64,000 nt of DNA, from contig JAHDRW010000028.1 in assembly GCA_018433085.1 (NCBI GenBank), positions 4,804 through 68,803 of the forward strand, written 5' to 3'. The translations under genes and the position numbers were made by a program. The stretch is from Deltaproteobacteria bacterium. GTDB taxonomy: Bacteria; Desulfobacterota; Desulfomonilia; UBA1062. The notes under the pieces are model-generated. The model did no database searches and was not told where the DNA came from. It worked only from the letters and a program-made list of their open reading frames with translations. Below are positions 27,196 through 30,104 of this stretch, piece by piece (position 1 is the stretch's first letter; each line of letters opens with the position of its first letter).

Positions 27196-28878
27196 TCAGA
27201 CCATCACCGCCACCATGCCTCCTGCAGCCGCTGCCACGCCCGATACCAGAGCCGCGGCGAACACCCACCATGCAGCGGACGAGGCGGTTTTTCTCACTTC
27301 TTCGGCGTGGTAGAGGGCTGTTTCTTCCGCCTGCTGCACCCTGGTCTGCACTTCATCGCGCATTCTCTCGGCCCGTGCAATCACGTCGTCCCGGGTGTTT
27401 TCCACCTTGGAGACCATCCTCTCGGCATCTTCGTCACGCATGTTTGGGCTGCTCTGGAGAATCATATGCTTGATATCGTCACGGTCGATGCTCTTGAGCC
27501 GGTGAATGAGCGAGTCGGCCCCGGCCCGGGGATTGTGCAGCATGGTCTCGAAGTCGGCCTTGATGCCTTCGTAGTCGAGTTCGGGGTTTTCCGTAGATTC
27601 CAGGAAGCCCCGTGCTCTGCCCTCCATGCCTGCCTGGCTCTCCATGGTCGCCCCCCGGCCGGACTCTTTCGTTGACTGATAGCGGGACTTCAGATTGTTC
27701 ACCGTTCCCGCCACCATATCGACGACCCGACGGGCCTCGTTCTGGTCCATGTCCTTTCTCTGGGCCAGGATCGAGGTGATCGTGGAGCGGTCCATCTCGT
27801 TGAGCCGGGCGAGTATGGAGTCGACCCCTGCTTTCGGGTCGGAGACGAGCCTGTCGATATCGCGCTTGATCCCTTCGGGACTCAGCTCATCCTTGCCGGT
27901 TCTGGCCAGGTAGTCCTCGACCCGGTGCCGGTACTTCTCTGCGTCCTCGCGCGACATGCCTGCCATCCGCGCAGCCGCGTCCGCGATCTTCTCGGCCCTT
28001 TCCTTATCGGTGCGGGCCTCTTCACCCATGATGTCCCGGGCGGCCCCGGCCTGTTCCTTTGCCTGAGAAGCAGCGGCCCTGGCCATTCCCCCGGTGTGGA
28101 AGCGTGCAGTGAGGGTCTCCCGGTCCGGAGAGGCATGGATCTCGATCTCGGCGTTGTCGAGGATTCCCTCGATCTCTTTGCCCAACTGGCGATAGCTCGG
28201 TTTCATCTGGTCTACATAATTCTGAATGGTCTTTCTCACACCGATGTCACCGAACACCTCGCCGCGCACGACATCGATGATGCTGCGGGTCGTATCCGCC
28301 GCCTGCTTCTCCTCCGAGGTTCCGAGAAGTCCGGATGCCGTCGTGGAGACCGACCGGAAGCCTGACCTTGCCACGTCCATGAGCGATCCCACCATGGATG
28401 AGACTGCAGTCATCTCCAGGATCGCGGTAATGAGGTAGAAGAGGCCCCATATGGCGAGACCCAGGGTTATCCCTGCTACGGTGGTCAGTGCAATGCTGAA
28501 CTCCACCGCGAGCCATGCCGCGAAGAACAGGGATATGGCCGATGTGATAACAGCCCAGATGCCGAACGTCGTGTTTACGGTGCGCAGCTTCTCTTCCACC
28601 GGCTCTGTCTCTCCCTGCCGTTGCTGTTGTTGCCTTCCGCCGCTTGGCCCGACCCTTTTCCGCAACGATTCCAAGGGGCTGTGCATGGCGCTCAAGCCGA
28701 CCGCTGCAGAAAGGTTCGTCAGTATGAGCTGGAAGCCGAATGCCAGGATGATCCCTACCACCAGCGCGGTGATAAAGCTCGCCCCAGGAATCAGAAGGTC
28801 TGCCGGGAACGTCTCGACCTGGGCGAAAAGCGCTACCGGGACCAATGTCATGAGGAAGGTGAGAATGATTTTTCTCAT
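27196..28878 (-). CDS. hypothetical membrane protein with N-terminal TM bundle, internally repeated soluble region and C-terminal TM anchor
   Basis: ATG at 28878 after an AAGGAG SD. 560 aa. Two clear repeats of about 65 aa (residues ~331-395 and ~433-497) start ELSPEGIKRDIDRL / ELDYEGIKADFETM. The C-terminal hydrophobic tail is AAWWVFAAALVSGVAAAAGGMVAVMV. Confidence 0.6.
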   Translation of the reverse strand: MRKIILTFLMTLVPVALFAQVETFPADLLIPGASFITALVVGIILAFGFQLILTNLSAAVGLSAMHSPLESLRKRVGPSGGRQQQQRQGETEPVEEKLRTVNTTFGIWAVITSAISLFFAAWLAVEFSIALTTVAGITLGLAIWGLFYLITAILEMTAVSSMVGSLMDVARSGFRSVSTTASGLLGTSEEKQAADTTRSIIDVVRGEVFGDIGVRKTIQNYVDQMKPSYRQLGKEIEGILDNAEIEIHASPDRETLTARFHTGGMARAAASQAKEQAGAARDIMGEEARTDKERAEKIADAAARMAGMSREDAEKYRHRVEDYLARTGKDELSPEGIKRDIDRLVSDPKAGVDSILARLNEMDRSTITSILAQRKDMDQNEARRVVDMVAGTVNNLKSRYQSTKESGRGATMESQAGMEGRARGFLESTENPELDYEGIKADFETMLHNPRAGADSLIHRLKSIDRDDIKHMILQSSPNMRDEDAERMVSKVENTRDDVIARAERMRDEVQTRVQQAEETALYHAEEVRKTASSAAWWVFAAALVSGVAAAAGGMVAVMV

Positions 28879-29481
28879 GGCTTTTCTCCTTTTCATTCTT
28901 CCGGGCACGCTCGCCCGGGGTTATCTTTACGGACCCGGCCGGCTGTCAGGTTCTGGATACAGTCGGCCGGCCTTCAGCCGTTTATCGGGAACCTGCGCCG
29001 GGAGTCCGGGGAACCGCATATCCGTTCAAAAGCGGTTGTCCCTTCAGCGGGACGTCATAAGTCCGCCGACCCATGGCTTTCTAAAGGCAATGGTTTTTCA
29101 AAGGTTTTCTCTCGGCTTTTCGGTACTGTTCCCTCCGCACACCCGACCTGCTCCCCGCCTCGTCATGATGCCGTAGCGTCTCAGGCCGTTTTCTCTCGTT
29201 TCGGGGCCGGGGAAACCCGGTCCCATTACCCGGTCACGCACGCCTGCACACGGGGAATGCGCTGCATACACATATAATGGTGATCACCGCGGCGCTTATC
29301 CACCACACCAATGCATGCAATCATCGTTTTTTCAGGAATGGCGGATTTTTGGGGAAAAATGCGCCAATGTGCAGTCGGAAATACGGACAAGGAGGACGGG
29401 AGGCAACCCATGGGAAAGCCGGGAGCAGAGGGCTTGGGATGCAGCCGTGACAGGGCGCCTGCGGGAAAGAGTCGTGCGCCC

Positions 29482-29739
29482 TTACGAACCCTTCATGCCG
29501 CGCCTCAGCAGCAGGAAAGCCACCATCGCCAGAAAAAGGAGCGAATACCTCCACACCAGTGAGATCAATGTCCCGAGTGTCCACAGGACCATCCTCAGGC
29601 CGACATAGCCCGCCACCACCAGAGCCAGGGGCTTTGCGATGCGCATCATATTGCCGAATCTGCGGCCGATTTCGCCTTTCACCGCTCCGAGATCCCTGGT
29701 CGTGCTCTGAATCCTCTCTCTCAACTCTCTTTCAGCCAT
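29482..29739 (-). CDS. small membrane protein (85 aa), DUF3618/stress-operon-like
   Basis: ATG at 29739 after an AAGGAGGA SD. Charged N-terminal helix (MAERELRERIQSTTRDLGAVKGEIGRR) followed by two hydrophobic helices. Confidence 0.5.
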   Translation of the reverse strand: MAERELRERIQSTTRDLGAVKGEIGRRFGNMMRIAKPLALVVAGYVGLRMVLWTLGTLISLVWRYSLLFLAMVAFLLLRRGMKGS

Positions 29740-30104
29740 GTGATATCCTCCTTGATCCTGCCCATGTCCGTCTGCGCCTTCCTGACTCCTTTGCGCGTTT
29801 TCCTCATGCCGGCAATACCGAGAATCAGACCGAACAGCAGGAGCAGAAAGGTCATGATCAGGGCCGAGACCCAGGGCGGAAACCACACGTTCAGGAGAAG
29901 GGTCAGCGTGATCAGGAGGTATACGCCGGAAAGCGCCAGGAATACGAAACCCGATCCACCGAGGGTAATCCCTGATAATCCGGTCCGGACAGAGCCCTGG
30001 ACCGTGGTCTTCAGGTAGATCTTCTGATCCGAGACCAGACTTTTGATCAGACTCACCGCGTGTGCAAGCAACGCGGCCAGGGACATGTTTTCATACTTTT
30101 CCAT
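29721..30104 (-). CDS. Holin-X (phage holin family / holin superfamily III) membrane protein
   Basis: AGGAGA SD. 127 aa. Layout is an amphipathic N-terminus (LIKSLVSDQKIYLKTTV), two TM helices and a charged tail (RKTRKGVRKAQTDMGRIKEDITWLKE), typical of the family annotated as phage holin family protein. Confidence 0.6.
   Translation of the reverse strand: MEKYENMSLAALLAHAVSLIKSLVSDQKIYLKTTVQGSVRTGLSGITLGGSGFVFLALSGVYLLITLTLLLNVWFPPWVSALIMTFLLLLFGLILGIAGMRKTRKGVRKAQTDMGRIKEDITWLKES

Follow-up and report, generated by a model that had tools for sequence, protein, structure and literature searches.

Genes resembling yqjE and yqjK lie in a syntenic block with DUF883 genes, and the DUF883 protein YqjD is a C-tail-anchored ribosome-hibernation factor (bioRxiv 10.1101/2024.08.16.608256). 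Expression of yqjE is upregulated by RpoS, and YqjE and YqjK are predicted to form a complex (PMC10746276). The PA3040-3042 operon of Pseudomonas reacts to envelope stress as well as to stationary phase and infection by phage (PMC11302039), and in Actinoplanes two sigma-H-induced clusters each contain a Holin-X gene adjoining a DUF3618 gene (PMC11205660). Here we describe a locus that invites comparison with these systems, in a Deltaproteobacteria bacterium of the UBA1062 lineage (assembly GCA_018433085.1, contig JAHDRW010000028.1). The window, that is, the whole stretch of DNA analysed, spans 64,000 nucleotides (nt), and three of its minus-strand genes, called G1, G2 and G3 hereafter, occupy positions 27196-30104. 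A preliminary description had grouped them, as a Holin-X family gene, a gene for a small transmembrane (TM) protein and a gene for a large repeat-containing membrane protein, into a single envelope-stress or membrane-remodelling module. We conclude, with a probability of about three in four, that the interval consists of two independent genetic units, the G1-G2 pair and a stand-alone G3, rather than one operon. The genes and the junction of the first two are as follows.

29721..30104, minus strand: G1, 127-aa YqjE-like 'Holin-X' inner-membrane protein, from its PF07332 match, hydropathy and alignment with homologues.
29482..29739, minus strand: G2, 85-aa small membrane protein and putative partner of G1, with its ATG at 29739 and a profile family of its own.
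29721..29739, minus strand: G1/G2 overlap of 19 nt, ATGGCTGAAAGAGAGTTGA, in which the G2 start codon lies within the G1 codons for WLKES.
27196..28878, minus strand: G3, 560-aa membrane protein of a widespread family, a stand-alone gene whose ATG at 28878 is preceded by AAAGGAGA.

The coordinates and gene features confirm the common orientation of the three genes, and the overlap between the first two is exactly 19 nt, as the preliminary description had it. The distribution of G3 sets it apart from the other two. A search of NCBI proteins returned 79 homologues of G3, and more than 314 species-representative genomes carry a member of the family. At least 10 phyla are represented: Desulfobacterota, Latescibacterota, Acidobacteriota, Ignavibacteria, Pseudomonadota, Myxococcota, Lentisphaerae, Bacteroidota (for example Salinimicrobium and Catalinimonas), Planctomycetota and Cyanobacteria. 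At 79 loci, the open reading frames (ORFs) within 6 kb of the G3 homologues were scanned with phmmer and with a hidden Markov model (HMM) of the G1 sub-family, whose sensitivity suffices to detect E. coli YqjE (E=0.003). Genes resembling G1 or G2 were found near G3 in its immediate clade only (loci L007/L015, L041, L008-10, L014 and L012); the roughly 70 G3 loci outside this clade have no PF07332-like or G2-like ORF within 6 kb. A marginal Holin-X-like match near G3 in L019 turned out to be a GTPase. All-against-all clustering of the ORFs neighbouring G3 likewise revealed no family that accompanies it across phyla. G1-G2 and G3 are neighbours only in one Desulfomonilia clade, made up of relatives of Candidatus Phosphitivorax. 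The closest named relative with the G1-G2-G3 arrangement is Deltaproteobacteria bacterium Phox-21 (L041, MPOS01000018.1), which we take to be the phosphite-oxidising Candidatus Phosphitivorax anaerolimi.

The pair also occurs away from G3. The genes downstream of four distant G1-G2 pairs vary, coding for peptidyl-tRNA hydrolase (pth, on the opposite strand) or a ferredoxin-domain (Fer4) protein, and no G3 homologue is found among them. Furthermore, nature has provided a deletion that removes the pair and spares G3. In the P0009 lineage (L001-L003; 86% G3 identity), RuBisCO-like and UbiA/Rce1 genes flank G3 as they do in the window, and the block between them is absent.

29304..32840, no strand assigned: segment of 3,537 bp missing in the P0009 lineage, delimited by blastn of L001 against the window.

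By blastn, the junction is clean: positions 3801-5576 of L001 correspond to window positions 34612-32841 and positions 5576-7775 to window positions 29303-27118. The missing 3,537 bp hold the 3' part of a 359-aa ORF, a FadL/TodX-like gene, G1, G2 and 178 nt beyond G2. Since a stump of the 359-aa ORF remains in the P0009 lineage, the event is a deletion there and not an insertion in the window. G3 is retained together with 425 nt upstream of it, at 84% nucleotide identity. The preliminary description had itself set co-conservation as a test of the joint module, and G3 is not co-conserved with G1-G2: the loci of other phyla without Holin-X, the distant pairs without G3 and the natural deletion all concur that G1-G2 and G3 are genomically independent.

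The sequence between G2 and G3, which had been put at about 600 bp and measures 603 nt, is laid out as follows.

28879..29481, minus strand: G2-G3 gap of 603 nt; its distal 178 nt are variable, and its proximal 425 nt are kept with G3 in the deletion lineage.
29251..29303, minus strand: invariant block GTGGATAAGCGCCGCGGTGATCACCATTATATGTGTATGCAGCGCATTCCCCG, conserved in 7/7 aligned clade relatives, including one without G1-G2.
28899..28920, minus strand: GC hairpin CCGGGC-N6-GCCCGG directly 5' of the G3 ribosome-binding site, its stem bases conserved in 7/7 relatives.

Invariance of the block at 29303-29251 is full or nearly so across the seven aligned relatives, and the deletion breakpoint falls exactly at its 5' edge. 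The block can be read as TGGATA-17 nt-CATTAT, with 8/12 matches to the sigma-70 consensus, and we infer that it may be the promoter of G3, in which case the transcript would begin with a leader of about 390 nt. A DnaA-box-like sequence, TGTGGATAA, also lies inside the block; it is a perfect match in 3/7 aligned relatives, and the motif is clade-specific. More generally, the region upstream of G3 (28879-29303, minus strand) contains several conserved GC-rich blocks and shows about 84% identity in the relative without G1-G2. A riboswitch or other structured RNA in the gap was considered and rejected: comparison with Rfam gave no match at the gathering or E<=1 threshold, and RNAalifold on 7 relatives returned a positive, that is unfavourable, covariation term.

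Several observations weigh against our interpretation or against parts of it. Five lineages sampled in the clade have G1, G2 and G3 next to one another, at G3 identities as low as 69%. The minus strand carries no canonical intrinsic terminator between G2 and G3, and shuffled sequence folds as well as the hairpin that follows the G2 stop codon (z=-0.84); in the absence of a terminator after G2, transcription from G1-G2 could read through. The promoter match of 8/12 is below the threshold of 9/12 of the scan tool. A functional link between G1-G2 and G3, or read-through transcription from one to the other, may thus exist. As for the proteins, the analogy of G1-G2 with yqjE/yqjK is positional and architectural only, as G2 has no detectable homology to YqjK, the full-length structural model of G3 is poor, with a predicted local distance difference test (pLDDT) score of 55.7, and the topology suggested below for G3 depends on hydropathy and the positive-inside rule.

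The alternative that fares best is the original one, in which G1, G2 and G3 are co-transcribed and make up one envelope-stress or membrane-remodelling module. We consider it unlikely. The location of all three genes on one strand, their continued adjacency in the clade loci listed above, Phox-21 included, and the lack of a recognisable terminator in the G2-G3 gap would all suit such an operon, but the 603-nt gap holds an invariant promoter-like block, the deletion lineage has kept G3 without G1-G2, some 70 G3 loci in other phyla are devoid of Holin-X, and distant G1-G2 pairs do without G3. Of the envelope-stress module of three, a stress link for G1-G2 is reasonable by homology; a place for G3 in the module is not supported. 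The main use of recognising two independent units is that it averts an incorrect operon call; nothing in it should surprise a specialist.

The biochemical roles of G1, G2 and G3 can be proposed with low confidence. For G3, an identical 560-aa protein is present in NCBI (P0001), and the 570-aa version with a GTG start is merely the longest mechanical ORF. The parts of G3 are the following.

28399..28878, minus strand: N-terminal membrane domain of G3 (residues 1-160), a signal-peptide-like segment followed by three TM helices.
27679..27924, minus strand: G3 repeat 1 (residues 319-400), a five-helix unit, from internal BLASTP.
27373..27618, minus strand: G3 repeat 2 (residues 421-502), from internal BLASTP and the structure model.
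27211..27279, minus strand: C-terminal TM anchor of G3 (residues 534-556), with the motif RKxAxxAAWWxF..SGxAAAxGG.

Hydropathy and internal BLASTP agree with the initial portrayal of G3 as a TM bundle followed by long charged helical repeats and a C-terminal TM anchor. The signal-peptide-like segment comprises residues 1-20, and its final A-Q is conserved across 40 homologues. The hydrophobic helices that follow, at approximately 34-62, 103-125 and 130-155 by hydropathy, are accompanied by the motifs FQLILTNLS, FGIWA..SLFFAxWLA and GLAIWGLFY..LE, and a basic loop with 7 K/R (residues 66-103) separates the first two of them. The soluble region (residues 180-533, about 350 aa) is helical and net acidic, with 56 K+R versus 68 D+E. 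Within it, the repeats at 319-400 and 421-502 share 35% identity (internal BLASTP, E=3e-13), and repeat 1 has the motif YLxxTGKxELxPEGIKRDxxxL..DPKxG...RL...DRST..ILAQRKDM..EA..VVD. In an AlphaFold2 (AF2) model of the repeat region (pLDDT 81 overall, about 80-90 in repeat 1), each repeat is made of five helices, and the last helix of repeat 2 runs on toward the C-terminal TM helix. In this last helix, W537, W538, G553 and G554 are invariant in 40 sequences; we regard it as a TM segment of the glycine-zipper type.

The repeats, of about 85 aa each, vary in number across the family. There is one in a Pseudomonas plasmid protein and two in G3 and in most phyla, and the homologues of heterocystous cyanobacteria, at 1,040-1,080 aa, carry several more copies. 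In these cyanobacteria (L056-L089; Nostoc, Scytonema and related loci), ORFs of about 70 aa, for example L060 3320-3532 on the minus strand, are located no more than about 1 kb from the homologue of about 1,040 aa. The small ORFs, with 48 copies in 21 loci, carry a motif resembling that of high-light-inducible proteins, EIWNGRFAAIGF. This synteny is clade-specific and consistent with a stress-gene neighbourhood.

The profile searches that the preliminary description had proposed for the three proteins yielded a family for one of them: G1 matches PF07332, and neither Pfam nor NCBIfam has a match for G2 or G3. For G3, searches of Pfam, NCBIfam, PHROGs and PADLOC gave nothing, or matches far below threshold. 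Foldseek with the full-length model (pLDDT 55.7) found no match in the PDB at E<=0.001, and a profile search against PDB sequences retrieved only apolipoprotein, at E=0.005. In databases, G3 homologues are called 'hypothetical', 'MFS transporter' or 'nucleoid DNA-binding protein'. Neither of the functional names fits. As for the major facilitator superfamily (MFS), G3 has four hydrophobic helices and a signal peptide versus a 12-TM fold; as for HU, PF00216 does not match G3 and matches just 2/40 relatives, weakly. The 'nucleoid DNA-binding' name probably stems from weak HU-like matches of the helix pair DRxTL..LL.QR.DLSEE.A..I.D, and the HU and MFS names of the cyanobacterial proteins look like over-annotation of the part of the repeat that resembles a helix-turn-helix.

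A tblastn search of plasmids with G3 identified the 'YrzE family protein' WP_315962808.1, encoded by the Pseudomonas plasmid NZ_CP135972.1 (E=2e-5, G3 residues 37-179). Profile comparison of the G3 family with this protein by hhalign gave a probability of 99.0% (E=3.1e-18) over 300 aligned columns that cover the TM domain, one repeat and the C-terminal TM helix. The parts come in the same order as in G3, namely a three-TM domain, a repeat of the form TGKxxLNP...DRxxL..L...R......EA..IVD and a C-terminal TM helix with a small-residue zipper. The plasmid protein differs in its length of 320 aa, its single repeat and its lack of a signal peptide. By homology over the full architecture, G3 belongs with this 'YrzE family protein'. 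The HMMs most plausibly behind the YrzE name are TIGR04086 and the Pfam family DUF3792. Neither matches the N-terminal 180 aa of G3 at E<=10, TIGR04086 is absent from the 25 most often matched of the 88 families listed for 40 G3 relatives at E<=1, and WP_315962808.1 itself scores below threshold for both (20.8 bits versus 30 and 19.4 bits versus 31.3). Our search of the literature on YrzE, DUF3792 and TIGR04086 found nothing functional. Judging from its sequence, G3 is a new member of a widespread family, delineated here by its modular repeats and its spread over more than 314 species genomes of at least 10 phyla; no Pfam model covers this family. Linked here to the RefSeq 'YrzE family', it is a defined target for functional work.

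How might G3 be disposed in the membrane? Cleavage of the signal peptide, followed by three TM helices, would place the helical domain in the cytoplasm, and the basic loop 66-103 is consistent with this topology under the positive-inside rule. The last TM helix would return the chain to the membrane, such that the soluble domain would be tethered to the cytoplasmic face at both ends. It is tempting to speculate that G3 is neither an enzyme nor a transporter but a scaffold or docking platform close to the membrane. We put this forward tentatively, as one possibility, on account of the variable number of repeats, the lack of matches to enzyme or transporter families, the absence of a recognised catalytic motif among the conserved residues and the acidic surface.

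The proposed cytoplasmic location of a charged helical region ahead of a C-terminal TM helix recalls the DUF883 proteins YqjD, ElaB and YgaM, and both G3-family members and YqjD give weak apolipoprotein-like matches. G3 differs from DUF883 proteins in being five times larger and in having an extra N-terminal TM domain and internal repeats. A relationship by descent was rejected, as neither the N-terminal nor the C-terminal DUF883 HMM matches G3 at E<=1 and hhalign gives the G3 family and YqjD a probability of 16% over 40 columns. It could still be argued that, in this clade, G3 takes the place of the missing DUF883 partner beside the YqjE/YqjK-like pair, as a C-tail-anchored cytoplasmic helical protein that would, for instance, hold ribosomes or other complexes at the membrane during stationary phase. 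The C-terminal TM anchor following a long charged helix, the shared apolipoprotein-type matches and the lack of a DUF883 gene beside G1-G2 or elsewhere in the window would speak for such a substitution. We hold it to be very unlikely, nevertheless: on top of the poor profile scores, the N-terminal three-TM domain means that G3 is not simply tail-anchored, its soluble domain is net acidic (68 D+E versus 56 K+R), and G3 is not co-conserved with G1-G2 beyond the clade. A broader version, to which we likewise give little credence, has the G3 family as a new class of doubly membrane-anchored cytoplasmic scaffold that replaces DUF883 beside the YqjE/partner pair in the Phosphitivorax clade. If it were true, how far the scaffold reaches, or how much it can hold, would depend on the number of repeats, and at least 10 phyla would possess a system that tethers ribosomes or other cytoplasmic complexes to the membrane under stress.

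Going back to the first of our two units, G1 starts with an ATG preceded by an AGGAG ribosome-binding site and belongs to PF07332 (Phage_holin_3_6, also known as Holin-X or YqjE, formerly DUF1469). In a Pfam HMM search, it matches model positions 2-116 of 116 at E=4.1e-16, with 59.5 bits against a cutoff of 28.4, and its homologues in L014, L091 and L093 also score above the PF07332 threshold. The protein begins with an amphipathic helix and continues with a hairpin of two TM helices, and its basic C-terminal tail (RKTRKGVRKAQ) ends with the conserved ED(I/M)xWLK. Hydropathy places the TM helices at about 46-68 and 75-100, and G1 agrees with PF07332 in size (about 120-135 aa in that family), hairpin and tail. 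The aligned homologues are 35-84% identical. In one of the clade relatives, the Syntrophaceae bacterium UBA1062 metagenome-assembled genome, the G1 homologue (L012 4784-5166) is split into two ORFs in different frames beside an intact G2 and an intact G3, which points to either a pseudogene with a frameshift or a mistake in the assembly. Upstream of G1, a candidate promoter can be listed.

30220..30247, minus strand: promoter-like site TTGAAA-16-TATCCT, about 115 nt upstream of G1, a weak match to the consensus.

As the scan returned 2 sites versus 1.3 expected by chance, this site is not evidence on its own.

In G2, a hydrophobic hairpin comes after a charged N-terminal helix, MAE(K/R)ELRxEI...EL. 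In word-indexed searches, close relatives of G1 and G2 appeared in one clade only. A profile search of 1.84 billion proteins with G2 retrieved 21 cluster representatives, which measure 71-120 aa and share the MAE(K/R)ELRxEI..EL motif and the hydrophobic hairpin. As a member of this previously unnamed family, G2 is a real gene. Its distant members also document the pairing: directly upstream of distant G2 homologues (29-35% identity to G2) lies a PF07332 gene for a protein of 127 or 128 aa, overlapping by exactly 19 nt, in 4/4 cases. The overlap recurs in five loci read base by base (L007, L008, L091, L092 and L093; G1 identity 35-84%), and the gene coordinates indicate it in a sixth. At the junction, RTGGYTSAAANAGARYTGA reads WLK(E/Q/K)(S/N)* in one frame and M(A/V)E.. 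in the other.

Because the 19-nt overlap is fixed down to 35% G1 identity, it is probably a site of translational coupling, and we infer that G1 and G2 may assemble together. Translation of G2 would be coupled to that of G1, the two proteins would be made at a fixed ratio, and they would form a small inner-membrane complex. From its conserved junction, G1-G2 appears to be a self-contained bicistron. By homology with yqjE and PA3041, its product is most likely a stationary-phase or envelope-stress component of the membrane and no lysis holin. That G1 could be a genuine phage-derived holin, and G1-G2 the remnant of a lysis or toxin cassette, is hardly credible: the Pfam family name 'Putative Actinobacterial Holin-X' and the growth arrest of E. 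coli upon YqjE overexpression (cited in PMC10746276 and PMC11302039) may suggest it, but no endolysin, spanin or other phage gene lies nearby, PHROGs has no match for G1, G2, G3 or the neighbouring 359-aa ORF, the flanks are chromosomal housekeeping genes for metabolic and envelope functions, and the pair sits in a fixed chromosomal context across the clade. The preliminary description was right about the absence of phage genes, and G1 has neither the phage or prophage setting nor the adjoining endolysin or spanin of a functional phage holin. To annotate G1 as a 'phage holin family protein' is misleading: it is a chromosomal membrane protein of the YqjE type, with a small partner that seems obligate and is probably coupled to it in translation.

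The genes that flank the interval encode RuBisCO-like, FadL/TodX-type outer-membrane and UbiA proteins, a Rce1-like protease and a lipid A acyltransferase. The PADLOC defence families have no match for G1, G2, G3 or the neighbouring 359-aa ORF. The FadL/TodX-type transporter gene (30609-31940, plus strand; PF03349, E=1.6e-17) is divergent from G1, with which it shares an intergenic region of about 500 nt. It accompanies G1-G2 in the clade (L007, L008 and L010) and was lost together with G1-G2 in the deletion lineage. The 359-aa ORF (32011-33090, minus strand), located between the RuBisCO-like and outer-membrane genes, has no match in Pfam, PHROGs or PADLOC; close relatives have kept it, L007 with a length of 379 aa, and the P0009 lineage has its 5' stump. 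As for the RuBisCO-like gene (33168-34490, minus strand), class-III aminotransferase and FGGY-kinase genes lie ahead of it in relatives, and the arrangement is kept in L001 and L007. This three-gene arrangement may represent a sugar or sulfur-salvage pathway.

How, then, does the G1-G2 pair compare with described ones, of which E. coli yqjE-yqjK and Pseudomonas aeruginosa PA3041-PA3042 come closest? The preliminary description had presented Holin-X proteins and small charged-helix TM proteins as a recurring pairing, which the distant G2 homologues and E. coli yqjE/yqjK bear out, and as a functionally unassigned one; on the latter point, the pairing belongs to the yqjE/yqjK type, which has been described and is usually accompanied by the DUF883 factor YqjD. 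G1-G2 has the layout of a yqjE-type operon, with a YqjE-like gene whose end overlaps the start of a gene for a small membrane protein. E. coli YqjE, like G1, belongs to PF07332 (E=3.5e-21), and the proteins are similar in size, with 127 aa for G1 and 134 aa for YqjE. G1 has a two-TM hairpin by hydropathy, and YqjE is an inner-membrane protein (PMC10746276). The second gene of either pair codes for a membrane protein of just 85-99 aa whose N-terminal helix is charged. The overlap is 11 nt between yqjE and yqjK and 19 nt between G1 and G2.

There are also clear differences. G1 and YqjE are too diverged for detection by BLASTP. G2 is not a PF13997 (YqjK) protein: neither it nor any of its 21 relatives matches this family, and homology to YqjK was rejected at the sequence level, with hhalign probabilities of 0.1-0.4% and a weak pairwise BLASTP match (E=0.038). 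Unlike in the E. coli yqjCDEK operon, neither a DUF883 (YqjD) gene nor a YqjC gene precedes G1. A phmmer search with YqjD found no DUF883 protein among the ORFs of the window, and the ORFs upstream of the pair in L091 and L093 are short and unlike DUF883 by reading alone, without a family-library scan.

In Actinoplanes, the neighbour of the Holin-X gene encodes a putative DUF3618 membrane protein and both genes are induced by a stress sigma factor. The likeness to G1-G2 is by analogy only, as G2 does not match DUF3618 at E<=1. The E. coli and Pseudomonas examples make a stress link of G1-G2 reasonable by homology. Given the shared PF07332 membership and the similar overlap in E. coli, G1-G2 is a YqjE/small-partner pair without the DUF883 gene that usually goes with it in Proteobacteria. 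Its novelty is that of a new sub-type of a known gene pair, and the strict 19-nt overlap offers a simple rule for finding further pairs of this sub-type.

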